A stretch of DNA of 64,000 bases from contig JAZLBQ010000026.1 of the NCBI GenBank assembly GCA_045613785.1, positions 12,697 to 76,696 on the forward strand, in the 5' to 3' direction. Origin of the DNA: Candidatus Enterousia sp. GTDB taxonomy: Bacteria > Pseudomonadota > Alphaproteobacteria > Rs-D84. Below the pieces are notes generated by a model that saw only the letters and a list, made by a program, of their open reading frames with translations, had not been told where the DNA came from and ran no database searches. Made by a program: the position numbers and the translations under genes. This document shows, piece by piece, positions 8,784-46,715 of this stretch (position 1 is its first letter; every line of letters starts with the position of its first letter).

Positions 8784-8800
8784 CAGCACAACAAAGACCT

Positions 8801-8834
8801 AAATAGAATGGTAAAACCCCAACCATTCTATTTA
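8801..8834. repeat. mini-palindrome made of the MITE TIR motif (AAATAGAATGG...CCATTCTATTTA)
   Basis: An 11-bp inverted repeat around a 12-nt spacer. It reuses the AAATAGAAT terminal motif of the MITE family and also supplies the TAA stop of the addB-like gene. Confidence 0.6.
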
Positions 8835-11345
8835 ATCTTTTGCTCTTTTCAAATCATCAAACGCCTGATATTTCTTATCGCTTGTTTCATAGTATTCATA
8901 TCCTGCATTTCCTGCCGAATACATATTAAACAACTCTGTTGTTTTATTGACTGCGGCATCTATCATTTGTTGTGTTTGCTCTTTATCATAATTGATAACA
9001 CGTGCATCACCATTTTTTAACTGCAAGAACTTCATCACAGGTGTTTTAGACAATTCTGTTGTTTCGATTGGAAATCCATCTGTTTGCAGGATATAAGCCT
9101 CTAATGGTAATTGTGGCATATTGCCCTGCTCTAATTGACTTTTTGATGGTGCAGAACCTGTTTTAATATCCATCACCACCCCGTCCCAGAATCTATCTGC
9201 CTTGGCACGAACTGTTCGTCCAGCAATTTTTACACTACCCTCTTTTTCAATTCCTGGGTTTTGAATATCTTTCAGTGCCTCGGACACCACGGGTGCTATT
9301 TCATAAAACCGCTTTCGCCAGAAATGAAACAACACACTATTTGTTCCCAGCAATTCACGAGCCTTATTCTCCATTTGAGCCGCCAACACATCAGGATTCC
9401 AATCGGTTGCATCTTCGATAACCTTGTGAACCAGATTTCCAAAATCACGTCCATCGACCCCGACCCAATAATCGTCCAATACCCTCAGTCTTAAAATATG
9501 CTTTACATAAAAAGCGTATGGATTATGAATTAAATATTCCAGTTCTGTCACATATACATCAGACCAATCTGCTGGTGGTGTTGGCACAGAATAATCCAAA
9601 CTCTGCATTTTCACATTATCTAATTTTGCCACGGCCTGTGTAATATCTTTATTTCTGTCAAACTTTCCTTTGGCCACAATCACACGTGAAATAAATCTAG
9701 ACTCGGCGGTTTGCACCCCACCTGAAACAGTGCTTCGCAGCCACCAAACCTGTGAACCACAGGACAGATTCATAAAATCCAACGACTGCAACGAAACCTT
9801 GCGGTCAGGCGACGGCAATCCAATTTTTTCAGCCAAATGCCAGGGCAGCCAGGCATTTTCATAACCACGTGCCGGAAACATTCCATCATTTAGTCCTGTT
9901 AAAATCACAACATCTGCGGTCTGCATTCTGGATTCGATTGTTCCCAGCACAACGACCTGTGCTTTATCGTCCATAACCCCACGCACAGACACATTTGATA
10001 TGGCATCTAAAACAAAAGCACGTGCATCAACCAGACTCAACTGCACACCAATTGCAGCCAACGCATCTGAAACCTTTTTAATTTCAATCCATATCTGCAC
10101 AGATGTTGCATCGTCCACCACAAAGTTCGGTGTAAATTCCGCCTGATGTTTTTGAACAATCAAAGAAATCGTATCAAATAAATTGTGTTTGCATTCTGCA
10201 CAAATTTCATCAAATTCATTTGAAGACGTTTCAATCCATCCATCAATCATATTCAGCAACGCCCGCCCTGTTGCGGTCATTGTTCCTGGGACACCACCTG
10301 AAAAATCAGCCTTTATTCCCCGACTTGCCAATTCTGTTGCAATACGTTGATTTCCGGCTGCGTCAGGTGTTATAACTAAAACTGTTTTATTTTCATCTAA
10401 TGCCCTTTGTGCAATTTCTGCAACGGCTGCAGCCTCGACTGATTCACGTGAACATTCGACCAAATGACAGTGCGACAAATCTACATCACTATTCATCACT
10501 GAAACATCATTTCCAAAAGCCTTATTCATAAAATCAATTGCAGATGGTCCAACATCAATCGGCACAACATCATCAGCCTCTAAGCCCAGTCTTGATAAAA
10601 ATTTATATTCAGAATTATATGGATTTGTATTTAATTGAAAATCCTGAACACGCCCCGATATTTTTCCAGACAAAATTATTCGTCCATGTGGTTGCTTGGC
10701 AATTTCAACCATCAAATCAGCTGTCGCTGGAACACTAGCAGTTGACGCACAAACAACAACCAATTTATATCGATTCAAATAATCTTTCCAACGACGAATA
10801 TCCCTATTTTTAGCCATTGCAGATGTCAATCTTCCGCCTGCATAATCATTCATAAAAGTTGACATTATGCTTAAAAATCTGGCCTTATTTTGAAAATGTC
10901 GTGCATACTTTTCATCAACCAATCCCGCCCAGTCAACAGTTGCAACATCAATTCCTTCATTTTCCAGATAATCGCACATACGCACTAAATCTCGTGCCAA
11001 TGTCAAAGCAGTTGTCCAGTTTCCAACACTTGCATCTGCGACCAGCAATCTAGCCATTAAAACAATACGTTCAGTATTTGAAATAATATCCCTAGAACGA
11101 ATATCTTCCCAGTCTTCATCATTTGGGTTATCAACCCCTTCCCCCAGCGCAACCAACTGTGGCAAAATCACAGCACCACCAGACTTTTGCACAATCATTT
11201 TTTCGACTGTTCGCACAGCACGACGACTGGGCAAGAAAATCAGCATATCTGCCAACGCCACCCCAGAAGCACTGATAAGTTTCCACAACGCCTCTGAAAT
11301 CTTGGCAGGATTAGTTGCGTAAAAAACGCTATGATTATTTGACAC
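8832..11345 (-). CDS. addB: AddB-like double-strand break repair protein (PD-(D/E)XK helicase-nuclease family)
   Basis: 837 aa. The N-terminus ADMLIFLPSRRAVRTVEKM resembles alphaproteobacterial AddB. No addA was seen adjacent. Confidence 0.5.
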   Translation of the reverse strand: MSNNHSVFYATNPAKISEALWKLISASGVALADMLIFLPSRRAVRTVEKMIVQKSGGAVILPQLVALGEGVDNPNDEDWEDIRSRDIISNTERIVLMARLLVADASVGNWTTALTLARDLVRMCDYLENEGIDVATVDWAGLVDEKYARHFQNKARFLSIMSTFMNDYAGGRLTSAMAKNRDIRRWKDYLNRYKLVVVCASTASVPATADLMVEIAKQPHGRIILSGKISGRVQDFQLNTNPYNSEYKFLSRLGLEADDVVPIDVGPSAIDFMNKAFGNDVSVMNSDVDLSHCHLVECSRESVEAAAVAEIAQRALDENKTVLVITPDAAGNQRIATELASRGIKADFSGGVPGTMTATGRALLNMIDGWIETSSNEFDEICAECKHNLFDTISLIVQKHQAEFTPNFVVDDATSVQIWIEIKKVSDALAAIGVQLSLVDARAFVLDAISNVSVRGVMDDKAQVVVLGTIESRMQTADVVILTGLNDGMFPARGYENAWLPWHLAEKIGLPSPDRKVSLQSLDFMNLSCGSQVWWLRSTVSGGVQTAESRFISRVIVAKGKFDRNKDITQAVAKLDNVKMQSLDYSVPTPPADWSDVYVTELEYLIHNPYAFYVKHILRLRVLDDYWVGVDGRDFGNLVHKVIEDATDWNPDVLAAQMENKARELLGTNSVLFHFWRKRFYEIAPVVSEALKDIQNPGIEKEGSVKIAGRTVRAKADRFWDGVVMDIKTGSAPSKSQLEQGNMPQLPLEAYILQTDGFPIETTELSKTPVMKFLQLKNGDARVINYDKEQTQQMIDAAVNKTTELFNMYSAGNAGYEYYETSDKKYQAFDDLKRAKD

Positions 11346-11895
11346 CCAACGTTTCCTTTATTTTTTCCAAACCTGTTTTCTTTTCTGCAGACGTCATTAA
11401 AACTTCTGGCAACATTGCTCCATGTTCAGTATGCAGAATTTCGATCTGTTTAGTTTCACGAACTTTTTTATCTTTTTTTGTGTAAACAATCTGATAAGGG
11501 ATTGCATTTGCATCGCAAAAATCCATCAAATCCAAATCAGCATCTTTTGCACCAATTCGTGAATCAATCAATATAAACAGACGCTTTAATTGACTTCTGC
11601 TCAACAAATATTCTTCTAAACGTTTCAGCCATCTCATTGCATCGACTTTGGACACTTTGGCATAACCATAGCCCGGCAAATCAACAATCATCACCCTATC
11701 GTCCAGATTAAACAGATTTAAACTTTGTGTTCGCCCAGGGGTATTAGACGTTCGTGCAACAGGCGTTCCGACGACTGCATTTATCAACGACGACTTTCCA
11801 ACATTACTACGTCCAATAAAAGCATATTCTGCGAATTGCGTCTTGGGCAACGACTTTACTGTTTCGAAACTGCCAACAAATTTAATCATCTGCAC
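11335..11895 (-). CDS. engB: ribosome biogenesis GTP-binding protein YihA/EngB
   Basis: 186 aa; FIGRSNVGKSSLINA, DLPGYGYAKV. Confidence 0.9.
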   Translation of the reverse strand: MQMIKFVGSFETVKSLPKTQFAEYAFIGRSNVGKSSLINAVVGTPVARTSNTPGRTQSLNLFNLDDRVMIVDLPGYGYAKVSKVDAMRWLKRLEEYLLSRSQLKRLFILIDSRIGAKDADLDLMDFCDANAIPYQIVYTKKDKKVRETKQIEILHTEHGAMLPEVLMTSAEKKTGLEKIKETLGVK

Positions 11896-15907: not shown

Positions 15908-16010
15908 CAACAAAATCAAAGCCATCTGATTATATACGAAATGAAAACAAAATCAAGAACAAAGTAAAAGAAGAATAAAAATAAATTCCTGCCCCACCCA
16001 AATCCTGAGT

Positions 16011-16120
16011 TTAATGAAATTAAATAGAATGATTTAGATGCGGACAGTGCCGTCCCCGCAGTGTCCACAAGCGACATAAGGGAACGGCACCGTTCGCAGA
16101 TGAATTATTATATTTAATTT
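16011..16120. repeat. MITE-like palindromic element, copy 3
   Basis: About 95% identical to copy 1. Its right TIR supplies the TAA stop of the 80-aa Cys-rich gene. Confidence 0.8.
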
Positions 16121-16361
16121 ACCGCAATGGCGGGAAACAATCACCCCCCACTTCCGGACAACAGTTAAATCCTAAATCAGCCATGTCGGTATATACTTCA
16201 CCTGGACAACAACCATATTTATCTGGTTGTGCACCATAATCACAGACCGGCATATCACTAGGACGCATTGCATCACGATTAGCCCCTGTTAAAACACCAA
16301 AAGCAAAGCCTACAAAAAAAGCAATTACAACTGAAACTATTGAACAGATGTTTTTCTTCAT
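16119..16361 (-). CDS. small secreted cysteine-rich protein (six-Cys C-terminal module)
   Basis: 80 aa with signal peptide MKKNICSIVSVVIAFFVGFAFG; C-terminal module CDYGAQPDKYGCCPGEVYTDMADLGFNCCPEVGGDCFPP. Confidence 0.6.
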   Translation of the reverse strand: MKKNICSIVSVVIAFFVGFAFGVLTGANRDAMRPSDMPVCDYGAQPDKYGCCPGEVYTDMADLGFNCCPEVGGDCFPPLR

Positions 16362-16382: not shown

Positions 16383-16970
16383 TTACTGTTGTTTAAATGG
16401 TGGGAAACATTCATTGCCACCGTCTTTTGGGCAACATGCAAAAACGGCATTTCCCAAATCTCTGAATATTTCATCGCCACAGCAACCAAATTTATTTGGC
16501 TTTGAACCATCTGCACAAAGCCCTGCATCTAAATTGGCTAATTCCTTTTCAACTTCGGCCTGAATCTTGGCATTTTCTGCTGCGATTTTTTCTTCTTCAG
16601 TCATCGTATCTTCTGGAGCTACTTCTTCTGCACTTGCAACTTCTTCGGCCTTAACCTCTTCTTCTGTGGTTGAATTTTCTGGATTTTCTTCAACCTCTTG
16701 TGCTTTTTCCTCTGTTTCAATCACAACCATAGACGTCGCACTAGAACGTCTTGATGCAGCAACCTTGGCACATTTGCGACGATAATCCGCCTTTAACTTG
16801 GTTAGTTCTGCAATTATTTCATCATCAGGATCCACAATCTGCACCAATTCAGTAATTTTGTTTTGAATATCAACACAAGTCAAACGCTGAGAAACATTAA
16901 CTGTTGACACATCATCAGCCCATGCATTTATTGCAAAAATACAGCCGAACAAGACAATTAGTTTTTTCAT
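16383..16970 (-). CDS. secreted acidic protein with the same six-Cys C-terminal module
   Basis: 195 aa with signal peptide MKKLIVLFGCIFAINAWA and a Glu-rich linker; C-terminal module CADGSKPNKFGCCGDEIFRDLGNAVFACCPKDGGNECFPP, paralogous to 16119..16361. Confidence 0.6.
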   Translation of the reverse strand: MKKLIVLFGCIFAINAWADDVSTVNVSQRLTCVDIQNKITELVQIVDPDDEIIAELTKLKADYRRKCAKVAASRRSSATSMVVIETEEKAQEVEENPENSTTEEEVKAEEVASAEEVAPEDTMTEEEKIAAENAKIQAEVEKELANLDAGLCADGSKPNKFGCCGDEIFRDLGNAVFACCPKDGGNECFPPFKQQ

Positions 16971-16978
16971 TTTTTTTC

Positions 16979-17515
16979 CTATTGTTCATTGATTATTTTT
17001 TCGACTTCCAAGATAAAATCAATCGCAGGTGCAGTCAGTTTTTTCGCAGTTTCGAATATTTCTTCGGCTGCCATCTGCATATTCAAACGTTTATACGTTT
17101 CAACAACTTCGATTGTATCTTCTTGACTAAATTCATCATCTGTTATTGCCCGTGCAATTTCCAGTTCTTGCTTTGCCAATTCAACATACTTTTCAGAGTT
17201 TTCCGCACATCCCCGTTCGGACAAATTAGCATAGATTTTTGCACGCATAATTCTGTCATCAGAAATAGTATTTTCTGCTGGCAATTTTTCCAACAATAAC
17301 TCTTCTACAATGACACAAGTTGGTTTTGGTTCTATCTGAATTTCTGGCACAGGGTTTGTTGTTTCTTCGACCTCTGCTGCAATAACTTTTTTTGAACTAC
17401 TGAACCCCAGTCCAACCATTATACCACATACAAACAATGCAAGCAGTCCCATAATTCCCCAGAATTTTTGAGCCTTGGTATGAACAATTTTATATTGTTG
17501 TTTTTGTTTTTTCAT
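16979..17515 (-). CDS. hypothetical single-pass membrane protein
   Basis: 178 aa; N-terminal TM GIMGLLALFVCGIMVGLGF, then a predicted helical periplasmic domain. Confidence 0.5.
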   Translation of the reverse strand: MKKQKQQYKIVHTKAQKFWGIMGLLALFVCGIMVGLGFSSSKKVIAAEVEETTNPVPEIQIEPKPTCVIVEELLLEKLPAENTISDDRIMRAKIYANLSERGCAENSEKYVELAKQELEIARAITDDEFSQEDTIEVVETYKRLNMQMAAEEIFETAKKLTAPAIDFILEVEKIINEQ

Positions 17516-17543
17516 TTAACTCTCTCCCTTAGTTTTATTATTG

Positions 17544-18254
17544 TTATTCCACGATTCCGTTGTTGATTGTAATTCTACGATCTGCCCGCTGTGCCAGATT
17601 CATATCATGTGTCACGAACAGCATTGCCATTTTATTCTTGCGTGCTAAATCCAGCAATAAATCGAACACCGCCCCTGCATTATGCGGGTCAAGACTGCCA
17701 GTTGGTTCATCTGCCAACAAAATATCAGGATTGTTTGCCAAGGCTCGTGCCACTGCCGTTCGTTGTTGTTCACCACCACTCATTTCACCAGGATGATGAG
17801 ATGCACGATGTGCAACATTTGCAGCCCGCAACAATTTCATTGCCCTGGCCCTGGCGACATTTTCTTCGACGCCATTTGCCAGCATTGGCAACATGACATT
17901 TTCCAATGCGGTAAAGTCAGCCAACAAATTATGTCGCTGATAAACAAAGCCTATTTTTTTACGACGAACCTGAGTCCTTCTTTCTTCGTCCATTCTTTGA
18001 ACAGGCATACCGTTTATCAAGATACTGCCACCACTTGGCTTGTCCAACAGTCCTACACATTGCAACAAAGTAGATTTTCCTGACCCAGACGAACCAACCA
18101 TTGCAACAATTTCACCACGATGCAAATCAAATCCCCCACCACGCAATATATGCAAAGGCTGTCCGCCTTCGACAAACGTGCGTTTAATATCCCGCACTGA
18201 CATAACCACGTCACCAGACTGTACCTTTGACAAAGACTCTAAAATATTCGCCAT
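17544..18254 (-). CDS. lolD: lipoprotein-releasing ABC transporter ATP-binding protein LolD
   Basis: 236 aa; Walker A GSSGSGKST, signature LSGGEQQR, and high similarity to E. coli LolD along its full length. Confidence 0.85.
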   Translation of the reverse strand: MANILESLSKVQSGDVVMSVRDIKRTFVEGGQPLHILRGGGFDLHRGEIVAMVGSSGSGKSTLLQCVGLLDKPSGGSILINGMPVQRMDEERRTQVRRKKIGFVYQRHNLLADFTALENVMLPMLANGVEENVARARAMKLLRAANVAHRASHHPGEMSGGEQQRTAVARALANNPDILLADEPTGSLDPHNAGAVFDLLLDLARKNKMAMLFVTHDMNLAQRADRRITINNGIVE

Positions 18255-18929
18255 TTATTCCCGCCCATTATTCTTATTTAGTTCTATCTGTGCCACAGCC
18301 TGCTTTAATATATCACGAAATTGTGGCGCAACCACATGCCCAACTCCATACCAAATGCCCTTCAGCGCTTCTTGGGTATCAACATCCATCTGGTCTTTGG
18401 TTCTATTCAGATAATATTCAATATCTTCGGGCGAAAAACCAAAGGCAACCCCATGAATAAAATCCAACTCCAAATTATTTAACAACTTATCTGCATATTG
18501 CGGAAAGTTCTTTTTTGCATCCTGCACTTTTGCTGGCTTTATCGAAACATTTGCCAATTCTGGATTCAGACGCTTTATTTCATCTACATAACGCTTCATC
18601 TGAACACGCCAATTGTCCTTATTTTGCAAAATATAATTTTCTAAATCTGCAATTTCCTGTTCTGAATATCGCGTATCACCAACCACTATTTTACGCACCG
18701 CTTTTTGATAATCTTGCAGTCTGTACATATACCCATATCGCATCATCAAACCAAATGGACTTAATCCATCTGGCAACTTATATTGATAATAAATCTTGAA
18801 TGGTAATTTTACCCCATGCTCCACAAACATCTTTTCTGCATCCAACGCACTAGACTGATACTCGCCCCACTCTGCATTAAATTGTTCCAGCATAATTTTG
18901 TTAAAAAGCAATTCTGTTTTCTTACTCAT
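18255..18929 (-). CDS. hypothetical cytoplasmic protein inserted between lolC and lolD
   Basis: 224 aa with no recognisable motif. Its start overlaps the lolC stop by 8 nt, and its stop TAA directly abuts the lolD ATG (TAAATG). Confidence 0.5.
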   Translation of the reverse strand: MSKKTELLFNKIMLEQFNAEWGEYQSSALDAEKMFVEHGVKLPFKIYYQYKLPDGLSPFGLMMRYGYMYRLQDYQKAVRKIVVGDTRYSEQEIADLENYILQNKDNWRVQMKRYVDEIKRLNPELANVSIKPAKVQDAKKNFPQYADKLLNNLELDFIHGVAFGFSPEDIEYYLNRTKDQMDVDTQEALKGIWYGVGHVVAPQFRDILKQAVAQIELNKNNGRE

Positions 18930-20175
18930 TTCTCAGCACCTCAACCGGGTCTGTATTTGCCGCTTTCCACGCTGGATACAGCGTCGCCAAAAATGCCAAC
19001 AATATTGCAATCAGCGCAATACCCAAAACATCTGTCCACACCAACTTTGATGGCAACTCTGACAGATAATATAATTCCGCCGGGAACAAATCCCGTCCTG
19101 TCAACCATTGGAAAAACTGTCGTATTGGTTCAATATAAATTGCGACCACCACCCCCAGTATTGTTCCAAATAACGCCCCAATAATTCCAATTGATGTTCC
19201 TGACAAAACAAAGATTTTCATCATAGACCGACGACTGACCCCAAAAGTTCGCAACACTGCAATATCTTTGTTTTTATCTTTGACCAGCATTACCAACGAC
19301 GAAACTATATTAAAAGCCGCCACAATAACAATCAGCAACAAGATTAAAAACATAACATTTGATTCGACCTGCAACGCCCCAACAAACCCACGATTTAAAT
19401 CACGCCAATCACGGACAACAAATCCTTCGGGCAATAACCTTGCCAAACTTTCCACAACGACTGTTGTATCTTCTGGGTCTTCCAAGAAAACATCAATATG
19501 TGTTACACTATTTCCGATATTTAGATACTTTTGTGCAGTTTCCAGCGGCATAAAGATATACCCAGAATCATATTCATACATACCCATAAAGAAAGAACTC
19601 ATCACCGGATAAGACATAATTCGTGGCATTGACCCAAAAGGTGTTGGTGTTGCTGCATTTGCCGATACCAATGAAATTTTATCCCCCATCGTGACACGCA
19701 ACGCACGTGTAAGCGACGCCCCTGCAACCAATTCACCATCAGATATAGCAGACAAATCCTTACCATAAATACGTGTTCCATTTTGTGTTTTTTTTGCCAA
19801 ATCAGACATACGAATACCACGAATCATTGCCCCTGTGTTATTACCATTGGCTGTGGCCATAACCTGCCCTTCTGCGATTGGCACGATACCGGTTGCCCGT
19901 TGTTCAACAACCTTGTTTTGTTTAATTTTGTCGATTAGGAAATCAAAGTCAGCAATTGCACCATCTTGATGATAGACAACGACATGTCCGTTCATTCCCA
20001 CGATACGCCCTAACAGAGTCTCGTGAAAACCACCCATTACAGACATCACAACAATCAAGGTCGCAACACCTAACATGATACCAATCAGCGACACCCAGGA
20101 AATCACAGAACCGAATCCCCGTTTTTTTGCCCCCAAATATCTAAAAGCGATTTTTCTTTCCAGTTTTGAAAACAT
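18922..20175 (-). CDS. lolC: lipoprotein-releasing system permease LolC/E family
   Basis: 417 aa; N-terminal TM, a large periplasmic domain, and 3 C-terminal TMs (FtsX/MacB-like topology); LolC-like N-terminus FRYLGAKKRGF. Confidence 0.8.
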   Translation of the reverse strand: MFSKLERKIAFRYLGAKKRGFGSVISWVSLIGIMLGVATLIVVMSVMGGFHETLLGRIVGMNGHVVVYHQDGAIADFDFLIDKIKQNKVVEQRATGIVPIAEGQVMATANGNNTGAMIRGIRMSDLAKKTQNGTRIYGKDLSAISDGELVAGASLTRALRVTMGDKISLVSANAATPTPFGSMPRIMSYPVMSSFFMGMYEYDSGYIFMPLETAQKYLNIGNSVTHIDVFLEDPEDTTVVVESLARLLPEGFVVRDWRDLNRGFVGALQVESNVMFLILLLIVIVAAFNIVSSLVMLVKDKNKDIAVLRTFGVSRRSMMKIFVLSGTSIGIIGALFGTILGVVVAIYIEPIRQFFQWLTGRDLFPAELYYLSELPSKLVWTDVLGIALIAILLAFLATLYPAWKAANTDPVEVLRNE

Positions 20176-20187
20176 CAGTTTTTATCC

Positions 20188-21516
20188 TTATTCACTCAAA
20201 AAATCACGCAACGCATCACCAATCAGTTCATTTGCCTGTCCAATTTGAGCAGGTCCATCAACAATTGAAATCACACGTGGCGACATAAAGACAACCAGTT
20301 CTGCAAAAGGCGACACCAATGTTTCAGGTGTTGTCACAAACGAATGCGTTGGAATACCGATAATCACATAGTTATCCCCAACACTTGTTGGCAAATTGAA
20401 TGAGCTCAATTCTCCCTGACTTGTTCGCAACACGATTTTTGCATCAATCTTATCACGACCACCAAAGTCCCCATATTTTCCGGTTGCCCCAACAATTAAA
20501 TCTGTTTCCAATCGTTCTTCACGACCACATTGTCCGATATCAAATCTTGATTGCCAACCATTTGGTATAGCAAACGTTCCTTGAGAAATTAAAACAACAT
20601 TTGCCTGTTGTGCTAAAAATTCCTGCAAAGTTTTTGTATTGATTTCAGGACCTACGACCAACGCACGTCCAACGACACCTGGCACAGACATTTTAATATT
20701 CTTTTCACCGAACGCTGGCAATAAATTCATCCAAACAATTGGGTTATCTGTTCGTGGATAGACACGATAAACATCGATATCCCACGCCAACATATATTTC
20801 TTTCCAGAAACATCTGCGATAATCCTTGCGACCTCACGTTCAGTCTGATAATTTCCTTCAAAGACCAACGTTTTATCTTGCCAATCAACAATTAGATTAC
20901 GCATATCTGCACCATGCATTGCGTCCAGCAACGCCATAATAATCGTTTCATCTTGTGGCATTTTAATCAGCCACTTTCCACGATGCATCAAATGCAATTC
21001 GCCATTTTGTGCATCATAGGAATAATAAGCACGTCCCATTTTTGCCATCAATTCAACAGCATCAGACAACGCCCCCGATGAAATAGTCCCTGAAATTTTT
21101 TCAAATAACTGTTCATCTTCTACAACTGCAATATCTGTTCCGTCCAGCAATTTATCCAACGCCCGTTTAACAGTCAAATCCTTGAATTCATAGTCTGAAA
21201 CTTTCAACTCTGGCAGTTCATCACCCACCCCCAGACGTATCATTTCAATTTTTTCAGCAGGCACAACCGAAACCACACTTTGATTATTCCAATCAACTTC
21301 ACACCGCTTTGGCAGCTCTACCGAAAAGCGTCGTGCAGTATCTGTTGTCAAGGCTGCTTTTTTTGGAAAGATTGGCACAGAATTTTCATCGATTACCAAC
21401 TCGTCAATAACAGTGATATTATCAATAATCTGCACAGGCTTGTCTTCTTGAACACAGGCCGCCATTGCGAAACAACAAATCACCCAAGATAATTTTTTTA
21501 ATGCTCTCATACCCAC
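20188..21516 (-). CDS. outer-membrane lipoprotein with secretin-like features (tentative)
   Basis: 442 aa; signal peptide plus Cys (FAMAAC), a secretin_N-like block (VKRALDKLLDGTDIAVV...LSDAVELMAKMGRAYYSYD) and a C-terminal IIGIPTHSF...ELVVFMSPRVI resembling the secretin VPxLGxIPxLGxLF...ELLVFITPRII motif. Confidence 0.35.
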   Translation of the reverse strand: MGMRALKKLSWVICCFAMAACVQEDKPVQIIDNITVIDELVIDENSVPIFPKKAALTTDTARRFSVELPKRCEVDWNNQSVVSVVPAEKIEMIRLGVGDELPELKVSDYEFKDLTVKRALDKLLDGTDIAVVEDEQLFEKISGTISSGALSDAVELMAKMGRAYYSYDAQNGELHLMHRGKWLIKMPQDETIIMALLDAMHGADMRNLIVDWQDKTLVFEGNYQTEREVARIIADVSGKKYMLAWDIDVYRVYPRTDNPIVWMNLLPAFGEKNIKMSVPGVVGRALVVGPEINTKTLQEFLAQQANVVLISQGTFAIPNGWQSRFDIGQCGREERLETDLIVGATGKYGDFGGRDKIDAKIVLRTSQGELSSFNLPTSVGDNYVIIGIPTHSFVTTPETLVSPFAELVVFMSPRVISIVDGPAQIGQANELIGDALRDFLSE

Positions 21517-22513: not shown

Positions 22514-22587
22514 TGGTGCCCTAAGCAAGAATCGGACTTGCGACTCGTCCTTACCAAGGACGTGTTTTACCACTAGACTATTAGGGC
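22514..22587 (-). tRNA. tRNA-Thr (GGT)
   Basis: Reverse complement GCCCTAATAGTCTAGTGGTAAAACACGTCCTTGGTAAGGACGAGTCGCAAGTCCGATTCTTGCTTAGGGCACCA. Confidence 0.85.
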
Positions 22588-22660
22588 GACAAAACTTTTT
22601 TTCAATTATACGAAGCCACAAGAAAAAATCAAGGATAAAAAATAAAGAATCCTAAACGTT

Positions 22661-22875
22661 TAAATGAAATTAAATAGAATGATTTAGATGCGGACAGTGC
22701 CGTCCCCACAGTGTCCAGAAGCGACATAAGGGAACGGCCCGTTCGCAGATGAATTATCAACAAATAAATGAAATTAAATAGAATAGTTTAGATATGTGAA
22801 AATCCGTTGGCGTAATGTATTGAACATACATGAGCCAACGGATTTACGCATAGATGAATTATTATATTTAATTTT
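22661..22875. repeat. MITE-like element, tandem pair (copy 4a canonical, 4b with a different stem aaatccgttgg/ccaacggattt)
   Basis: 4a (22661-22760) is ~95% identical to copies 1/3 and carries a truncated right TIR. 4b (22767-22875) has the same termini but a different, perfect 11-bp stem. The end of 4b supplies the TAA stop of 22874..23431. Confidence 0.75.
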
Positions 22876-23431
22876 ACTCGATACAACAGTTGACGGCATT
22901 CCTAACCCAGTTCTTTAACTTGCCCATACCACTCTTTTTTTCAGCCTTTGCGGTTTCAGGTGGACATTCAGCAGTTTTTACTGATTCTGATTTTTTTGTT
23001 GCTTTGGCTTCTTTTTTTTCGCCGGTCAGCATCCCCATATTCAATCCCCAGAACATACAATACAATTCATAGGATTGATCAAACAAAGAATACGCAGTTT
23101 CTTTATCCCCTGCAGCCAAGGCTTTAGTTCCAACTTCGAACACACGCATAGATGCCGCCAACAAGTGCTTTGAAATACACCAAACCTCACCTTCATAAGA
23201 AGGGATAATTTTCAGCATTGCATTTTTACGCATTTCACGGACTTCGTTTATCAAGTCATAGAATTCTGTCTTGCCAGTTTTTGCACCTGAAAACATTAAA
23301 TGTTCTTCGATAGAAATCAGGTTCATAATACCGATTGTCAAATCTTGGTCGCTAGACAAATCTTTTGGATTTACTTTTTTTGCGGCATCTAACTTTTCGA
23401 CAAATTCCTGAACAGATTCAATTTTTTTCAT
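22874..23431 (-). CDS. hypothetical protein (C-terminus ...NAVNCCIE)
   Basis: 185 aa with no signal peptide and a Lys-rich tail ending in CCIE. Confidence 0.45.
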   Translation of the reverse strand: MKKIESVQEFVEKLDAAKKVNPKDLSSDQDLTIGIMNLISIEEHLMFSGAKTGKTEFYDLINEVREMRKNAMLKIIPSYEGEVWCISKHLLAASMRVFEVGTKALAAGDKETAYSLFDQSYELYCMFWGLNMGMLTGEKKEAKATKKSESVKTAECPPETAKAEKKSGMGKLKNWVRNAVNCCIE

Positions 23432-23448
23432 ACCTCAATCCTTTTAAT

Positions 23449-23946
23449 TTACATACAACCAATCATCAACCAACTAGCCAACAACAATGCTACAATAGGC
23501 AAAACTACTTTTTCAAACGGAAAGTGAGCATGTCCACCATTTTTATTTTTCATCCACTGATATAATTTGCCTACCAAGACAAAAATCAATGCCCCACACA
23601 AAGTTCCAAACAACACAGGGTCCATAACGAACGCCCCACAAATTGTTACAGGGTTATATTCGACGACGCCCATATAAACGAACCCGATCATTGCAACAGA
23701 CAACAAAATCACGAATGCATCACGTCCACGGAAATGCCATTTTTTCTTGTCCATAAATTTCAAGGTCCAATACCCCAGCAAAGTCAACAATGCCCCAGCC
23801 CACAAACCAACAACTGCATCAGGCACGCCCAAGCGTCGTGCGATATCCAACCCTGCCCCAATGGCGATTGTGCAAACCGGGCACGCCGGATTAGCCAAAA
23901 GATTTCCTGGCATCAACGCAATCAAAGCCAACAAAAATTTACGCAT
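23449..23946 (-). CDS. hypothetical membrane protein with CPVC motif
   Basis: Start taken at MRKFLLALIALMPGNLLANPACPVC; about 4 predicted TM helices. The longer ORF-track N-terminus looks non-coding. Confidence 0.45.
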   Translation of the reverse strand: MRKFLLALIALMPGNLLANPACPVCTIAIGAGLDIARRLGVPDAVVGLWAGALLTLLGYWTLKFMDKKKWHFRGRDAFVILLSVAMIGFVYMGVVEYNPVTICGAFVMDPVLFGTLCGALIFVLVGKLYQWMKNKNGGHAHFPFEKVVLPIVALLLASWLMIGCM

Positions 23947-24118
23947 AACCTTTCCTTTTACTGCTAAATCGTTAGCATTATACAAAATATATAAAAGATA
24001 AGTCAACCCCCACAAATCAAAAACCACCTTCTGCTTGCACCCCTGCATTTTTATGCTATAAACTCTATGTAAAGTTTTTTTATAAAAATATTCCTAAAAA
24101 TTTGATATAATTATAGTT

Positions 24119-25048
24119 ATGAGATATATCACTTTATTTTTTATAATATTTCCATTTGTCGCATCGGCGAATGCACTGCCGCTGGATGATGCATTGCGTG
24201 CCACATACACCGCATGCGTTGGTATTGATGATGAATTGACTGACCTGAAAACAATGGCCGGGATAAATACTGCAATTACATCTGTTGGAACGGCGGCCGG
24301 TGTTGGTGCAACGGTCACAGGGCTTGTAAAAGCCAACAAAGATAAACAAATTGAAGTAAAACTGGAAAAACTGCGCGAAATTGAACAAAAAAATCCAGAC
24401 CTACAATCCACAAATGCTGAATGGGATAATTTTGAATCCGGCCTGACAACAGAACTGGCCAATGCAAAAATAGAGGTTGAAAAATATCAGGCTGAAATTG
24501 AAAAACTGAATAAGCAATCAAAAAAATTGGGTAATTGGCGGACAGGCCTGATGGCGGGCGCAACCGCAACCAATGTGGCTGGTGCAATTATTGCCGGCAC
24601 AAATAAAGTAGATGGCGACCTGAAAACGCAAATAGACAATTGTATCGGCAGTGTCAAAACCCTGCAAAATTCCATTATGCAGGCACGAATAAATGGCGAA
24701 GATGTGTCCGAGGCAGAAACAATCGCATCCGCATGCGTCGAATATGAATATGTCGATGTGTCCAAAATAAACAATCGTGCCAAGGGCGCAATGATTTCAT
24801 CCTCCGTTGGTGCTGCGACTGGATTGGCCGGAACGATTACATCCGCCACAGCCAATTCAAACAAAATACGCAATGCCCAGGGTGATGCAGCACAACAAAA
24901 AGAAAAAAATCTGAATACTGCCTCAAATGTGTTGGCGGGCGCAACAACTGTGGCTTCGGCAACAGCAACTGTATTCAACGCGACACAGATATCCGCGATA
25001 AAAAAAGTAGCAAGTGTTGCCGAAAAATGTACGGGGGTATTGAAATGA
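24119..25048 (+). CDS. secreted Ala/Gly/Thr-rich coiled-coil protein
   Basis: 309 aa; signal peptide MRYITLFFIIFPFVASANA. The stop overlaps the next ATG (ATGA). Confidence 0.5.
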   Translation: MRYITLFFIIFPFVASANALPLDDALRATYTACVGIDDELTDLKTMAGINTAITSVGTAAGVGATVTGLVKANKDKQIEVKLEKLREIEQKNPDLQSTNAEWDNFESGLTTELANAKIEVEKYQAEIEKLNKQSKKLGNWRTGLMAGATATNVAGAIIAGTNKVDGDLKTQIDNCIGSVKTLQNSIMQARINGEDVSEAETIASACVEYEYVDVSKINNRAKGAMISSSVGAATGLAGTITSATANSNKIRNAQGDAAQQKEKNLNTASNVLAGATTVASATATVFNATQISAIKKVASVAEKCTGVLK

Positions 25049-27678
25049 AGAAAACCCTGATTGCATTTTTGTGTACATTTATTGCGTTACCTGCGGTGGC
25101 TGATAATTATATCAAATTCAAGGCATCCGCAATCGAAGATACGATAAATACAATGGTGCCAGAATCACACCGCGCGTCCGCAGCAGACGAATATCAAAAA
25201 CAGATGGATTCAACCACCGGTAAAATATCTGTTATGGGTATTTACAAGGTTTGTGCAGCCGCCGGGTTCAATATAAATAACACAAATGGATATAACGGTT
25301 GTCGCCTGTTTATAAATACAATCGCAGAAAAATCTGGTTTTGGCTCTGGCAGCGCAACCCAACAAAATTGTGCAAACAAGTTCAATGGCATTTGGGCTTT
25401 ATCCCCCGATGGCACAGAACAATGTGTTGGCAGAGACGGCCATAAATTGGTATATCACGCATCATGTGATGGTGCGGGTGACGGTTGTATACGGGATTTT
25501 TCATCCCTGCAAACCCAGGAACCAAATGCACGCGAATTTATACAGGCATACGGACAACAAAAGAATCTGCAATTTACATGTTGGTATACATATGACAATC
25601 GTCGTGGCATAACCAGCCCACTGGGGCAAGATTACATAAAATGTAGTGCCGGTGGTAAATCATACGAATTTGAATTTGACGATTTGATTCAGGACCCAAG
25701 TAAAACCGCGGTTGAATCTGAAAATACAGCCCTGTGTGAAATGTTTGGTGGTAAAATTGTAAAAAATCCAGACAGCAGTATTGAAAAACAATGGCAATCG
25801 TGCGAAGTATCAAGGGAAATTTGCAATGGCCCACTACATAATTTGGCAGTCAAAATCGGACACAATGTAATGTACCAGGGATACTGCCGCCTGTCACGCA
25901 CAGTAACAGAAACATCGGTCGTTGGTCTGAAAACATTACCAGGTGTGGACAGTCGTATATTCTATAACACAGGCGCCCAAATGCGTGCCGGCATGGCCAA
26001 GGAACAAACCGAAGAATATCTGCGCACAAAATTCCCAAATGAAACATATGTAAACTGTGACCCAAATCCAAAAATATTGAACGAAGGCTTTGGAATTGAC
26101 CGGGACTATGTCATGACCTGTACCGTTGGCAGTAAACAGGTTGATTTCATATTCCATGACCTGACCGAGGGGGCGGATTATAAAGCAGAATCTGGCGAAG
26201 CAAAAATGGCATGTGCAATTGTGTCCGAGCGTCTTAACGGACAAAACTGCCATGGTTTGGACCAAGCTGCATGTACAGACCTGGGCAACAAATTAAAGCA
26301 AATGGGGCGTCGTGGCACAGACTATAAACCCGAACAAGGTGGCTGTATATTACTAGACACACAAAACGAAGAACTGGTTAATCTGGGATTGGAAATTGCG
26401 GGCGGTGTTGCATTAACAGTCCTCACAGGTGGCTATGGCGCAATTGCTGTCGTTGCCTCAATTGCAACAGATATTGGCTTTGAACAACTGAATCAATTGC
26501 TACGCAAAATTCCCTATAACGACTATCTAGAGTTTATGGAACACGCCAATAAATGTAGCGACACCGACACCAGCATTGAAAATCAGTATTGCGCTGGGAA
26601 TGTTCTGAATAAATATTTTGCATTAATTGCGGGCAGCATGGATAATCTGGCGCCTGAAATCCAGCAACGTGCAAGTGATAAATTACAATCCATGATGAGA
26701 ATTCTTTCAGATCCCGAAATCCTAACAACGGTTGATTTGTCTCACATTTCGGTTCAAAAGCGATCACGAAACCTGGCTTCGTTTGGTGCACTGGGATTAT
26801 TATGGCTGGCAAACCCTGATAAATGGGCAACCAAGGCCGATGATTTAATCCGCCAAGCCACAAAAATGGGAAAAACTATCAACAAAATTGATAATGTCGT
26901 TGACGCTGCGCGTATGTTTGGACGCACCAATCTTGATGATATTGGTGTTTATTCCAAGGGGTGGAGTGCTTTTCCATTGGAAGGATACAATAAATTCAAA
27001 ATAAAGGAAATAAGTTATCCAGGTGAAGCCGATGATGTACGTAGGGCCTTAGAATCTTCTGTGCCTAAAAAACCAAACCAAGCATTCTTAGGTGTAAAAG
27101 ACGACTATATTTACATAACATATGCAACAGATTTAGATCAGATGCGTCCTATATTCAACAGATATGTATCTGGTTCTAGTGTCGATAATGTTGCCGAAGC
27201 AACAATAAAAATTCCAGCTGGAAAACAGGGGGCGGCAGATATTATCCACAGAAGCGGAAACTCGGATGGTCTTACCGGATGGGAACCTGTCGAGACAATC
27301 GGTGATATAAAGACACCTACATATAACCAAGCTTACACATCGCCATCAAATACAAGCACAAGCAAAAGGTCTATTGTTGACGATTTGTTGGAGGAAAGAC
27401 GCAAAGCACAACAGGTATCTGTTCAAACACCGCAAACAACAGCAACAACCCAAAAATCGTTCTTAGATATTGCACGTGAAGCCGATGAGGCGGGTCAAGC
27501 AAGAATAGACGCATTTCGTGCAAAATACGACATGAGTACACAAGGCAGACTAAAATATACAAAAGAGCAATGGAAAGAAATTTTTGATAATGAAATCGGG
27601 TGGTCTGACCTAGAGGATACTTTCAGGGATGATTTTTTCCGTGATTATCAGTCTCTACTTGAACTAAATCGATACTAA
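25045..27678 (+). CDS. large secreted cysteine-containing hypothetical protein
   Basis: 877 aa from MKKTLIAFLCTFIALPAVA. Has an internal repeat (YEFEFDDL... / VDFIFHDL...) and is translationally coupled to the upstream gene. Confidence 0.5.
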   Translation: MKKTLIAFLCTFIALPAVADNYIKFKASAIEDTINTMVPESHRASAADEYQKQMDSTTGKISVMGIYKVCAAAGFNINNTNGYNGCRLFINTIAEKSGFGSGSATQQNCANKFNGIWALSPDGTEQCVGRDGHKLVYHASCDGAGDGCIRDFSSLQTQEPNAREFIQAYGQQKNLQFTCWYTYDNRRGITSPLGQDYIKCSAGGKSYEFEFDDLIQDPSKTAVESENTALCEMFGGKIVKNPDSSIEKQWQSCEVSREICNGPLHNLAVKIGHNVMYQGYCRLSRTVTETSVVGLKTLPGVDSRIFYNTGAQMRAGMAKEQTEEYLRTKFPNETYVNCDPNPKILNEGFGIDRDYVMTCTVGSKQVDFIFHDLTEGADYKAESGEAKMACAIVSERLNGQNCHGLDQAACTDLGNKLKQMGRRGTDYKPEQGGCILLDTQNEELVNLGLEIAGGVALTVLTGGYGAIAVVASIATDIGFEQLNQLLRKIPYNDYLEFMEHANKCSDTDTSIENQYCAGNVLNKYFALIAGSMDNLAPEIQQRASDKLQSMMRILSDPEILTTVDLSHISVQKRSRNLASFGALGLLWLANPDKWATKADDLIRQATKMGKTINKIDNVVDAARMFGRTNLDDIGVYSKGWSAFPLEGYNKFKIKEISYPGEADDVRRALESSVPKKPNQAFLGVKDDYIYITYATDLDQMRPIFNRYVSGSSVDNVAEATIKIPAGKQGAADIIHRSGNSDGLTGWEPVETIGDIKTPTYNQAYTSPSNTSTSKRSIVDDLLEERRKAQQVSVQTPQTTATTQKSFLDIAREADEAGQARIDAFRAKYDMSTQGRLKYTKEQWKEIFDNEIGWSDLEDTFRDDFFRDYQSLLELNRY

Positions 27679-27950
27679 TCCAATCGCCCCTGTGGCGGTT
27701 TTTGTTTAGTTGTATTTTGTATTATACCTTATCCCTTTGTAAACCTTTGTAATCTTTTGTAGCCTTTTGCCGCGACTTTCTGTTTGTTTCCCTTTATAAT
27801 TCATAGTGTAAAGCAAGCAAAAGGATTACGCATGTAAACATATTTTTCTATGTCCGAAATTATGTCTAGAATATGTAAAACAATCTGCGTAAAGTCGCGA
27901 AATCGGGAAAATTGGCACAAAATAAAAAATCCCGGAACACCGGGAAATTC

Positions 27951-28025
27951 TGGTAGCAGCGGAGGGATTCGGACCCCCGACCAAAGGATTATGATTCCTC
28001 TGCTCTACCACTGAGCTACGCTGCC
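27951..28025 (-). tRNA. tRNA with CAT anticodon (elongator Met or lysidine-Ile2)
   Basis: Reverse complement GGCAGCGTAGCTCAGTGGTAGAGCAGAGGAATCATAATCCTTTGGTCGGGGGTCCGAATCCCTCCGCTGCTACCA; followed by the hairpin tcccggaacaccggga plus a T-run. Confidence 0.7.
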
Positions 28026-38697: not shown

Positions 38698-38774
<77 letters not shown>

Positions 38775-39064
38775 GAATTCCGCCCCATTTTCACCCTTTT
38801 GCTACCTATTTGCTACCAAGAACAACCATTAAAGATAAACAAAATCATACATTATTAAGAATTGACATCTGATTTGAACATACTAGAATTCAAGCATAAT
38901 CAAAAGAATTCTTATTTTTCTAACAATACCTAACCCAACTTCAAATACACACAGGGGACGGGGGGGGGAGCAAGGTATAAGCCATAAAAAACACAAATCG
39001 GTCTTGAACTAAATAAAATAGAACAAGAATTAAACCAAACATCGTATCTTATTACTATACAATA

Positions 39065-39739
39065 TCAAACATTCTGGCTTATAAACTTCTCATTTACTAT
39101 TTCTTTTGTTTTATGCATCAAATACAATCTCATCAAATGTGAAAATGTTTCCGTTGTCGGTTTTATAATATCCCAAACCAACAATTCTGTATCAAACACA
39201 CCTGTTTTCATCCATTTTTCTTCAAGTTTTTCATAAACATAAATCATACTTTGGCCAACATATTTATAATCAAAACTATAAACCTTTCTTTCTTGTGGGT
39301 TAAGACTAGGAATAGCACTTGCCGCTATTGCCATTCCCATAAATGCAAACTTTGGTTCAAATGTTTGATAATCCCAACACGCTGAAACACCTATTATATT
39401 TCCATACTTATCCCACAACAGCCATGTATAGGTATCCAATGAGTTATTATAAGTCGGAACCAAATGCTTAAAATACCAATCCGTCCTATCCAGACAAATA
39501 TCCTTTAGCAAAGGATAATTTCCAACAAGTTTTTCAACATTGTTAAAATCACCAGCATATTCAAATAATAATGGTCCTGTTTCTCTGTTATAAGAAAACA
39601 TCATAATGGTGCTTATCTCAGAATTAATACCGTTGTCTTTTAAGATTTTATAATTTATCTCAAACCAATCTTTTGAATATTGTGTATAAACTGGCAATTT
39701 TACTTTTTTTTGAAATAACTTTTTAATTATATTTGTCAT
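39065..39739 (-). CDS. hypothetical protein (island cargo)
   Basis: 224 aa, very AT-rich codon usage; no motif recognised. Confidence 0.45.
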   Translation of the reverse strand: MTNIIKKLFQKKVKLPVYTQYSKDWFEINYKILKDNGINSEISTIMMFSYNRETGPLLFEYAGDFNNVEKLVGNYPLLKDICLDRTDWYFKHLVPTYNNSLDTYTWLLWDKYGNIIGVSACWDYQTFEPKFAFMGMAIAASAIPSLNPQERKVYSFDYKYVGQSMIYVYEKLEEKWMKTGVFDTELLVWDIIKPTTETFSHLMRLYLMHKTKEIVNEKFISQNV

Positions 39740-39747
39740 ATTTCCCC

Positions 39748-40410
39748 CTATTCAGACACCACGTTTTCTCTCTTTCTTTCCAATTCTAAAATATCTCTAA
39801 ACTGGTAGGTATATGTAAAAATTTTATCCATATACATATTATCACCAGCCCAATACTTATCAGAAATATACCCCAAATATATTTTATCTTTATAAAACTT
39901 TATTTCTGTCAAAAATAACGTTTTTCTACAAGGCACTAACTCTGTATTAAATACAGGATATGAATTATTAAAAGCATTCATATAACCATACCCCACGATA
40001 GTTTTTGACCCCGTATAAACAGAACCAGCATAATTAGCTTTTTCACAAACATCCGGCACAGATATACTATATACATTAATTTCCCTTCTTACCTTTACAG
40101 GATTTTTGCATTTATAATTATTTATTTCTTTATCATAGTCTCGCTTAGTCATTTTTATACCCGACCTTGCGTAACCAACATTTGTATTAAACGGGTCATT
40201 GGTATAAAATGGATTTTCATCCAATTCTTTAAACCCAGTACTAAATTCTGCACCTTCAAAAACAATGCAAAAATCATCCGATTTTAAATACTGTTCAATT
40301 TTGTGCATATTTTCATAATCATAACCACTACCTTCAAAACACCTATCTACACAAGGTTCCATTACACATCCAAACAACAAAAAAACAGACAATAAAAACG
40401 CCCTATTCAT
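39748..40410 (-). CDS. hypothetical lipoprotein (island cargo)
   Basis: Start at MNRAFLLSVFLLFGCV, a lipobox-like segment; Cys- and Tyr-rich. Confidence 0.45.
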   Translation of the reverse strand: MNRAFLLSVFLLFGCVMEPCVDRCFEGSGYDYENMHKIEQYLKSDDFCIVFEGAEFSTGFKELDENPFYTNDPFNTNVGYARSGIKMTKRDYDKEINNYKCKNPVKVRREINVYSISVPDVCEKANYAGSVYTGSKTIVGYGYMNAFNNSYPVFNTELVPCRKTLFLTEIKFYKDKIYLGYISDKYWAGDNMYMDKIFTYTYQFRDILELERKRENVVSE

Positions 40411-40878
40411 ACCACACCCCTTATAAAAAAATACCGTCAACAAGGGAATATTGACGGTCGGGTGGCTTCAAAACATCAAGTAAATGCCCCGTTGCTTTCA
40501 GAATAATCCTATTATATAACAACGGACACCCGACCACAGGTCAGGCAAAACGGTGCGAACACACCATTTAGAATATGGATAACGATGCAATTCGCACCGT
40601 ACTTGATGGGTTTTGAAGGCCCCGAACCCGCTAGTCCCCTATCGGATTCAATGCTTATGATAACAATAAATACCTATAAATGCAAAACAAAAACCGGCCC
40701 ACCACAACTATTAAATAACCAACAACAAAAGCCCGTATTTTAATACTAACAGACCTTTTAGATTATATTTAAACACAAACAACTTAATTAGCTTGTATTA
40801 AAACATTGACTATTTGTTTTGCTTGTATTAAAATACAATCTATATAAATAGGTTATATTAAAATAAAAGGTAATAAAA

Positions 40879-46690: not shown

Positions 46691-46715
46691 ATTTTTCCCC
46701 TGCTTTCTAAGAACA

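Follow-up and report, generated by a model that had tools for sequence, protein, structure and literature searches.

A candidate two-gene polymorphic toxin operon with exchangeable C-terminal regions in Candidatus Enterousia

Introduction

Polymorphic toxins such as CdiA, Rhs, LXG and others (Zhang, Aravind and colleagues 2012, PMC3482391) consist of a conserved N-terminus and, past a sharp junction marked by a conserved motif, one of many unrelated C-termini that are exchanged by recombination. In the Maf system of Neisseria (MafA/MafB/MafI), MafA is the dedicated outer-membrane secretion partner of the Sec-exported polymorphic toxin MafB (PMC7738311). The present analysis concerns an operon of two genes, encoding proteins of 309 and 877 amino acids (aa), at positions 24119–27678 of a 64,000-nucleotide stretch of DNA from Candidatus Enterousia sp. 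(GenBank assembly GCA_045613785.1, contig JAZLBQ010000026.1, positions 12,697 to 76,696), hereafter the window. The pair is best read as a previously undescribed two-gene system of Ca. Enterousia with a toxin-like tail that is traded between species. On balance, the operon rather likely encodes a toxin/effector system of the polymorphic kind that is new, Sec-dependent and specific to this lineage, and that has a partner dedicated to it.

The resemblance to Maf lies in the arrangement. In both systems a partner gene of ~ 310–320 codons stands directly upstream of a toxin gene encoding a Sec signal, the toxin N-terminus is conserved and the C-terminus replaceable, and the partner has been proposed or shown to be dedicated to toxin export (PMC7738311). 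The tail and downstream genes move as a cassette in both, which at the present loci is seen for one class of tails, the Zeta class. However, there is no sequence kinship; neither protein matches a Pfam or NCBIfam family up to an E value of 0.1. The 309-aa protein lacks a lipobox Cys and is all-helical by prediction, MafB has no counterpart of the Cys-rich ectodomain (420 aa) and the hydrophobic hairpin of the large protein, and most loci, that of the window included, have neither an immunity gene nor silent-cassette arrays. By analogy, the 309/877 system can be said to work like Maf and polymorphic toxins generally, but it is not a sequence member of Maf.

From the polymorphic toxins at large the pair differs in its N-terminal module, which is not any catalogued trafficking domain and carries a Sec-only export signal, in the lack of an immunity gene at most loci, and in the position of the recombination breakpoint of the window, which lies inside the ectodomain (codon 376) and not at the junction. 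Like them, it includes at least one class with linked immunity-like genes. The tail of this class is a Zeta toxin domain followed by two conserved small genes, an order that recalls Zeta/epsilon (PezT/PezA). Here, however, the domain is fused to an exported carrier of 800 aa, the downstream genes are not epsilon-like, one of them encoding an HD_4 phosphohydrolase, and the Zeta class is not the tail class of the window. AB toxins (Pseudomonas exotoxin A, CNF1, PMT) are composed of a binding domain with disulfides, a hydrophobic hairpin of helices that contains acidic residues, and a Cys-poor C-terminal enzyme, in that order. The sequence features measured in the 877-aa family follow the same order. 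Nonetheless, sequence or fold similarity to AB toxins is not detectable, the present family has an obligatory co-encoded partner, and it is from its sequence features that we infer translocation.

Ca. Enterousia belongs to the order Rs-D84, with genomes that are mostly smaller than 1 Mb and that lack the tricarboxylic acid cycle, respiration and standard transporters; these bacteria are suspected to be partner-dependent and occur widely in the guts of humans, livestock, birds and termites (PMC12306168). Every homolog of the 877-aa and of the 309-aa protein belongs to an uncultured alphaproteobacterium of the gut. Species-representative genomes, when scanned, yielded 46 loci, all of them in metagenome-assembled genomes labelled Candidatus Enterousia, Alphaproteobacteria, Rickettsiales or proteobacterium, sampled from sheep, goat, horse, buffalo, deer, chicken, termites and other gut or faecal sources. 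The pair is kept in every genome examined, sometimes in several copies, and its two genes, overlapping by the same 4 bp, recur in five or more genomic contexts.

Results and discussion

C-terminal classes of the large protein

The operon comprises the following parts (ORF, open reading frame; L and P numbers in the text designate homologous loci and proteins).

24103–24111, plus strand: extended -10-like element TGATATAAT, ending 7 nt ahead of the 309-aa start codon (read from the sequence)
24119–25048, plus strand: gene of the 309-aa partner, with signal peptide (ORF list)
25045–27678, plus strand: gene of the 877-aa protein, with signal peptide (ORF list)
25045–26364, plus strand: signal peptide (aa 1–19) and Cys-rich ectodomain (aa 20–440) of the 877-aa protein (AlphaFold, pLDDT 80–94)
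26389–26481, plus strand: Gly-rich hydrophobic segment, aa 449–479, LEIAGGVALTVLTGGYGAIAVVASIATDIGF (hydropathy scans, alignment)
26482–26949, plus strand: helical region with conserved C504 and C516, a second short hydrophobic stretch ending in NPD, and the Lys-rich junction KTINKIDNVVDA (alignment, AlphaFold)
26950–27675, plus strand: variable C-terminal region of this allele (AlphaFold, Cys count, domain searches)
27682–27700, plus strand: hairpin resembling an intrinsic terminator of the operon, within the swapped segment described below

The 877-aa protein has 117 homologs, 850–1312 aa in total length, which by blastp share aa 1 to ~ 535–554 with 29–83% identity and then diverge. Their C-termini cluster into ~ 22 unrelated classes. 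The tail classes and the N-terminal lineages are incongruent, such that one class occurs on divergent N-termini and one lineage carries several classes. The family therefore displays what defines a polymorphic toxin, a conserved N-terminal part joined to unrelated C-terminal domains among close homologs.

Several of the tails resemble toxins or enzymes. One class matches Pfam Zeta_toxin with an E value of 1e-23. The profile of a kinase-like class matched 20 PDB entries, all 20 of them protein kinases (best E = 0.014), over the catalytic motifs HxDxxxxN...DF, with weak Pfam Kdo matches also. The largest class contains an invariant HExxHxxD motif, and its PDB matches are solely to anthrax lethal factor, at a non-significant E value of 1.2. 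Among the classes tested as toxins or enzymes these three were matched, and the tail of the window and four other classes were not. A PDB profile search with class c4 found nothing, and a reading by eye of class c10 as ADP-ribosyltransferase-like is not claimed here.

The Cys residues are partitioned between the two parts of the protein. They account for 3.76% of the N-terminal part versus 0.097% of the variable tails, compared with 0.87% of the other proteins of the window. This is a ~ ninefold depletion of the tails relative to the other window proteins, and 93 of 116 tails contain no Cys at all. Secreted passengers and translocated toxins are Cys-poor, and this is the basis for proposing that the tails cross a membrane. 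The partition fits a disulfide-bonded, exported head and a tail that is unfolded or crosses a membrane.

For the Zeta class the tail is linked to further genes. The proteins P0014 and P0060 are 47–74% identical at the N-terminus and 90–100% identical over the last 250 aa, and each is followed by the same two genes, one encoding 180 aa and the other 180 aa with an HD_4 domain. The two downstream genes are 93% identical across different genomic contexts, a copy with 75% identity is present in a third locus, and L059 holds an extra paralog with 44% identity. Downstream immunity-like genes accompany the Zeta class in L009, L059 and L060. The Zeta tail and the two genes that follow it show the pattern of a toxin-immunity cassette, and the two genes look like immunity genes.

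Two departures from the usual gene structure were observed. At L041, the DNA past the stop codon of the large gene (11249–11863) retains a 71% match to the tail of the L038 homolog, and because of this match the L041 gene is probably truncated by a frameshift or stop, possibly as a decaying allele. In L043, L049, L050 and L054, ORFs of ~ 1670–2200 codons contain a region homologous to ectodomain aa ~ 135–570 with no adjacent 309-aa gene, and from this homology are taken to represent a different architecture of the same ectodomain.

Architecture of the 877-aa protein

The ATG of the 877-aa gene overlaps the stop codon of the 309-aa gene as ATGA and is preceded by a GGGGG ribosome-binding site, in agreement with the translational coupling that an earlier note on this DNA, made from the letters and an ORF list, had described. 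The AlphaFold model, computed with the alignment of 117 sequences, shows an α/β ectodomain. The same note had reported an internal duplication in the large protein. This duplication is weak and seen at the motif level only; the segments CSAGGKSYEFEFDDL and CTVGSKQVDFIFHDL align pairwise with an E value of 0.04, and the model shows matching strand-strand-helix units. A Foldseek search with the model against the PDB and BFVD returned nothing at E ≤ 1e-3, the best matches being double-stranded RNA-binding domain and MHC noise.

The hydrophobic segment that follows the ectodomain has a Kyte-Doolittle hydropathy of 1.9–2.2. It is 31 aa long in this allele and 35–50 aa long in most relatives, where it contains a central TGGxxxP turn and is consistent with a helical hairpin. 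The second hydrophobic stretch ends in NP(D/G) across the family, and a family junction motif, ...K[LI]D[DN][AV]xD..., precedes the variable part. The tail of this allele (aa 636–877) has no Cys. It comprises a small α/β domain (aa 635–710, pLDDT 80–89), a disordered Ser/Thr/Gln-rich linker (aa 711–779) and a helical end domain (~ 780–877). A search with aa 630–877 found only three fragmentary homologs elsewhere. Over the last 100 aa the identity is 90–100% with P0003 and 43% with the tail of L039; the N-terminus of L039 shares just 23%.

The 309-aa partner

The 309-aa product had been described in the earlier note as a secreted coiled-coil protein, and both a signal peptide and a variable coiled coil (~ aa 75–135) were found. 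The predicted signal cleavage is ...FVASA/NALP, with no lipobox Cys. The family has four invariant Cys (33, 175, 206 and 304) and four conserved Ala/Gly/Thr-rich segments of marginal hydrophobicity (1.05–1.43). A PDB profile search with the family returned coiled coils only, and 417 distant representatives, four long variants included, contained no informative Pfam domain.

Wherever a full-length ectodomain homolog has upstream DNA on its contig, the 309-aa gene immediately precedes the large gene, the two overlapping by 4 bp or standing a few bp apart. The 309-aa protein stays 50–95% identical even where the N-terminus of the large protein drops to 22–25%. Its conservation in protein sequence is about equal to that of gyrB, and the ratio of nonsynonymous to synonymous substitution (omega) of 0.08–0.16 shows strong purifying selection.

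The -10-like element TGATATAAT is a possible promoter of the pair. No Shine-Dalgarno sequence is present between it and the 309-aa ATG (24103–24121), which suggests a leaderless or near-leaderless mRNA.

Exchange of the operon between species

Two further features delimit the segments of the operon that differ in history.

26172–26173, plus strand: left recombination breakpoint, codon 376 of the large gene (blastn, column identity)
27731–27900, no strand assigned: conserved intergenic element with CTTTGTAA-type short repeats, a TATAAT and a possible small ORF (sequence comparison)

Between 24100 and 26172, the window is 87–92.5% identical at the nucleotide level to L003, L016, L025, L011, L017 and L009 by blastn. 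High-identity homology with the relatives starts at ~ 24064–24133, and all six 5′ alignments stop at exactly 26172, a limit seen both by blastn and in the identity computed for each block of 50 alignment columns. The syntenic relatives are again homologous from 27731 on, 53 nt beyond the stop codon. The intervening 1.56 kb resembles L007, L001, L015 and L014 instead, at 74–80%, and on this comparison the 3′ 1.56 kb of the operon is a swapped cassette from another allele lineage.

In the same genome pairs, the synonymous divergence (dS) is 0.31–0.50 for the 309-aa gene and 0.12–0.25 for codons 1–376 of the large gene, and 1.2–3.2 for six flanking genes (gyrB, udg, a 221-aa gene, pagL and the 185-aa and 199-aa genes described below). 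Because the dS of the module is low while that of the flanking genes is saturated in the same pairs, the 5′ 2.07 kb of the operon has been exchanged recently with at least six other species whose backbones are saturated. The shared part of the operon has an omega of 0.08–0.3 and ordinary codon usage.

The intergenic element downstream of the operon is ~ 150 nt long and may serve as a promoter, in regulation or as a substrate of recombination. Two copies in L011, at 6874–7022 and 11145–11292, flank the pair on both sides. In L011 and L012, a 93%-identical copy also stands just upstream of the 309-aa gene, thereby forming direct repeats around the pair, and in L031 a 78-nt repeat flanks the pair. 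Such flanking repeats are not general; among the loci searched they were found only in L011, with the L012 copy, and in L031.

Proposed function and alternative explanations

As a polymorphic toxin/effector system, the pair would act as follows. The ectodomain would fold with disulfides after Sec export and serve as the binding or anchoring part, the hydrophobic hairpin would insert into a membrane, and the Cys-free tail would be passed unfolded across a membrane into another cell. The recipient may be a competing bacterium, or the partner or host cell on which these reduced-genome bacteria are suspected to depend. The 309-aa protein, in the position of MafA relative to MafB, would be a dedicated export, assembly or pore partner.

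A number of findings weigh against this interpretation. No gene of any kind, and so no immunity gene, is present between the stop codon of the 877-aa gene and tRNA-Met, and most loci of the nearest subfamily have no same-strand ORF downstream of the large gene. No silent or orphan C-terminal cassettes were detected outside the main genes when all tails were compared by tblastn with the window and 62 loci. The tail of this allele (aa 636–877) contains no enzyme domain or motif recognizable by Pfam, NCBIfam and further searches, and PDB profiles gave no support to tails that had been read by eye as RelA/SpoT-like (c7), ADP-ribosyltransferase-like (c3) and His-Asp-Cys protease-like (c2). Pfam and NCBIfam searches identified no known secretion or trafficking domain (T5SS, T6SS, T7SS or others), leaving the Sec-type signal peptides only. 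The hydrophobic segment of this allele, at 31 aa, is short for a full hairpin, and its location after an exported domain could make it a stop-transfer anchor that keeps the tail in the cytoplasm of the producer. The AlphaFold model of the 309-aa protein is all-helical and of low confidence (pLDDT 53), owing to which it was not used for a fold search, and the proposed export, assembly or pore function of this protein is argued purely from its position, its conservation and the MafA precedent.

A more far-reaching interpretation is offered tentatively. The pair may constitute a hitherto unrecognized Sec-dependent delivery platform, in which the helical partner and the carrier pass interchangeable Cys-free enzymes into the cells that these bacteria live on or compete with. 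The carrier would provide a binding domain with a new fold and a glycine-zipper hairpin, and the platform would spread by recombination and be central to the partner-dependent lifestyle. If the pair is a delivery system, it offers a concrete handle on the lifestyle of Rs-D84, and the known range of polymorphic toxin systems would gain an N-terminal carrier, a fold and a helper protein, all three of them new. The many tail classes without a family are a source of candidate toxin and effector domains.

The alternative that survives best, although an unlikely one, is a sensor anchored in the membrane whose exchangeable killing or signalling domain lies in the cytoplasm, as in defence or abortive-infection systems. 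The Cys-rich domain would sense something in the periplasm, a single stop-transfer helix would span the membrane, and the tail would remain inside until triggered. The strength of the hydrophobic segment, its location after an exported domain and its length here agree with a single helix, and the Lys-rich residues after the second hydrophobic stretch fit the positive-inside rule. Most loci would need no immunity gene, and kinase, Zeta-kinase and metalloprotease effectors occur in defence systems too. However, the ~ ninefold Cys depletion of the tails is atypical of cytoplasmic domains, and in most members a hydrophobic segment of 35–50 aa with a central Gly/Pro turn places both flanks on the same side of the membrane. 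The linkage of the Zeta tail to two conserved downstream genes also argues against a sensor, and PADLOC gave no match besides a spurious coiled-coil one.

Improbable, too, and ranked below the sensor, is a pair of variable surface proteins or adhesins that would mediate attachment to a partner or host cell, with a tail that is not a toxin and varies under immune, phage or partner-specificity pressure. It would suit the partner-dependent lifestyle proposed for Rs-D84 and the tail of this allele, which has neither an enzyme motif nor an immunity gene. Surface passengers that cross the outer membrane unfolded are typically Cys-free as well. Nonetheless, several tail classes look like enzymes (Zeta toxin, kinase-like, HExxH), the Zeta tail moves with candidate immunity genes, and the variation consists of wholesale domain replacement and not of point diversification, with an omega of 0.09–0.3 in the shared part.

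The tRNA boundaries and the adjacent gene pair

The operon lies in a block between two tRNA genes, together with the features below.

22514–22587, minus strand: tRNA-Thr(GGT), left boundary (ARAGORN, Rfam)
22651–22880, no strand assigned: two overlapping copies (starts 22651 and 22755) of a repeat resembling a miniature inverted-repeat transposable element (MITE) (repeat families, alignment)
22874–23431, minus strand: gene of a 185-aa protein ending in NCCIE (ORF list)
23449–24048, likely coding 23449–23949, minus strand: 199-aa ORF of a polytopic CPVC membrane protein (ORF list)
27930–27945, minus strand: terminator-like hairpin belonging to tRNA-Met(CAT)
27951–28025, minus strand: tRNA-Met(CAT), right boundary (ARAGORN, Rfam)

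The earlier note had proposed that the whole block is a genomic island integrated at tRNA-Met(CAT). The 22.6–27.95 kb block is two unrelated gene pairs, not a single unit and not a classical tRNA-integrated island, and the proposal, now largely refuted, is very unlikely. Its observations were largely accurate. ARAGORN and Rfam confirm both tRNAs, with the 3′ end of tRNA-Met facing the block; the four ORFs are as listed; and the MITE copies at the far end are real, the last one adjoining the stop codon of the 185-aa gene. However, neither an integrase nor any other mobility gene was found between the two tRNAs (ORF list for 22.5–28 kb, Pfam, NCBIfam). The direct repeat of the tRNA 3′ end that integration predicts is not there, as no k-mer of 10 nt or longer from tRNA-Met is shared within 15–35 kb; tRNA-Thr has a single chance 10-mer in this range. 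Nor is the composition deviant. The GC content of the four genes is 0.38–0.44 versus 0.403 ± 0.021 in 19 core genes, and their codon distance is 0.11–0.14 versus 0.111 ± 0.036. Their GC3 and codon usage fall inside the core spread, with the sole exception of the GC3 of the 199-aa gene, which is ~ 3 standard deviations high.

The comparison with relatives gives a mixed picture. The earlier note had proposed checking presence or absence in relatives; the 309/877 pair was found in every relative examined. The 185/199 pair is variably present yet has a backbone-like dS, whereas the 309/877 pair is always present yet has a dS 5–10 times below that of its flanks. The frame of tRNA-Thr, 309/877 pair and tRNA-Met is also present in L011 and L016, where tRNA-Thr(GGT) is 97–99% identical, and in L011 it continues into PagL and lacks the 185/199 genes and the MITEs. 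The idea of a foreign origin survives only as the recent exchange of the operon, which alone has a horizontal history distinct from its flanks.

The tRNA genes are nonetheless enriched beside the pair, which was counted in favour of an island. A tRNA lies within 1 kb downstream of the pair in 11 of 43 relative loci, in 10 of the 11 with its 3′ end toward the pair, and within 1 kb upstream in six more. Against a background of 0.04 tRNA per kb, this gives a binomial p of ~ 7e-7, uncorrected for shared ancestry. Across L001–L058, the tRNAs are of several kinds, Met, Ser-CGA, Asn, Arg-CCG, Ser-GCT, Glu and Gly downstream and Gln-CTG, Thr-GGT, Asn, Gly/Tyr, Pro and Gln-TTG upstream.

Elsewhere in the window, a low-GC stretch (38698–42000; GC 0.28–0.33, GC3 0.18–0.26) lies directly downstream of a second tRNA-Met(CAT) (38698–38774, plus strand). 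It contains two ORFs without a family, at 39065–39739 and 39748–40443, both on the minus strand, and a Fic/DOC gene at 40879–41976, the Fic region at 39–42 kb having a deviating GC content of 0.28–0.31. This stretch resembles a tRNA-linked compositional island far more closely than the 22.6–27.95 kb block does.

Least probable of all is a phage-derived module, whether a receptor-binding or tail-associated pair or a phage-carried moron: the IMG/VR contigs L061 and L062 do carry a 59%-identical 309-aa homolog beside a 450-aa signal-peptide protein with the ...LEFIFDDI motif (in L061 at 8001–10303, the 450-aa protein being ectodomain only), 3.4 kb downstream of tape-measure, baseplate-hub and lysin genes, but a restriction-modification pair (PLD/EcoRI-methylase) stands between those tail genes and the pair, the pair and four downstream ORFs have no PHROG match, the surroundings of the pair are free of phage genes in the window and at 58 further loci, and BFVD yields no fold match.

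Searches of Pfam, NCBIfam, PADLOC and PHROGs gave no usable match for any of the four block proteins, so that the absence of recognizable homology stated in the earlier note stands for these libraries. It does not extend to metagenomic relatives, which number 117 for the 877-aa and more than 1900 for the 309-aa protein. The only library matches (coiled-coil noise, a weak 'MG_279/280' and an LmuB coiled coil) were discarded. The description of the four products as secreted or membrane proteins is right for the 199-aa, 309-aa and 877-aa proteins. The 185-aa protein, which ends in CCIE as described, has no hydrophobic segment and is for this reason taken to be cytoplasmic.

The CPVC protein is a membrane protein as reported, with 4–5 strong transmembrane segments (Kyte-Doolittle peaks 1.6–2.5). 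Its true start is probably Met34 at 23949, giving a product of ~ 166 aa, because the relatives (165 aa) align only from ~ residue 31. Homologs of the 185-aa protein occur only in L003 and L016 (81–84% identity). The dS is 1.2–1.7 for the 185-aa gene, matching the genome backbone, and 1.25–1.62 for the 199-aa gene. The 185/199 pair stands beside the operon only in the window, L003 and L016. Since L011 has the same frame without them, the 185/199 genes and the MITEs are a separate lineage-restricted insertion between tRNA-Thr and the operon, unrelated to the latter. A role of the two genes as immunity or accessory genes of the operon was rejected, as they co-occur with three different tail classes and are missing from most loci.

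The MITE-like repeat is ~ 106–126 nt long and has four copies in the window (3311, 16001, 22651 and 22755). The four copies align with a mean column identity of 81%, and the inverted arms are 41 nt long and 83% complementary. The repeat is thus short, non-coding and multi-copy, with the terminal inverted repeats that characterize a MITE. The copies at 3311–3436 and 16001–16126 are both intergenic and 92% identical to each other.

Other genes of the window

The rest of the window encodes core functions (RecA, MnmE, GyrB, LpxC, LpxK, DnaG, TopA, RodA, PBP2, MreC and PheS). A gene for an 809-aa ATPase of the VirB4/TrbE family (47335–49764, minus strand; Pfam CagE_TrbE_VirB, E = 4e-12), with neighbours at 46139–47327, is evidence, through its family assignment, of a type IV secretion or conjugation component in this genome. 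Two tandem paralogous ORFs on the minus strand, at 42600–43583 (327 aa) and 43592–44596 (334 aa), have no Pfam match and share repeats that are ~ 76–85% identical at 1-kb spacing, with GGTGG-rich stretches coding for poly-Gly.

An operon at 16383–21516 on the minus strand encodes a MacB-like permease (FtsX/MacB_PCD), an ABC ATPase, three proteins without a family and a 442-aa protein with a faint secretin-N (STN) match. Its genes encoding 442, 126 and 128 aa are also present in L042 (1056–3194), ~ 4 kb from the 309/877 pair and in inverted order.

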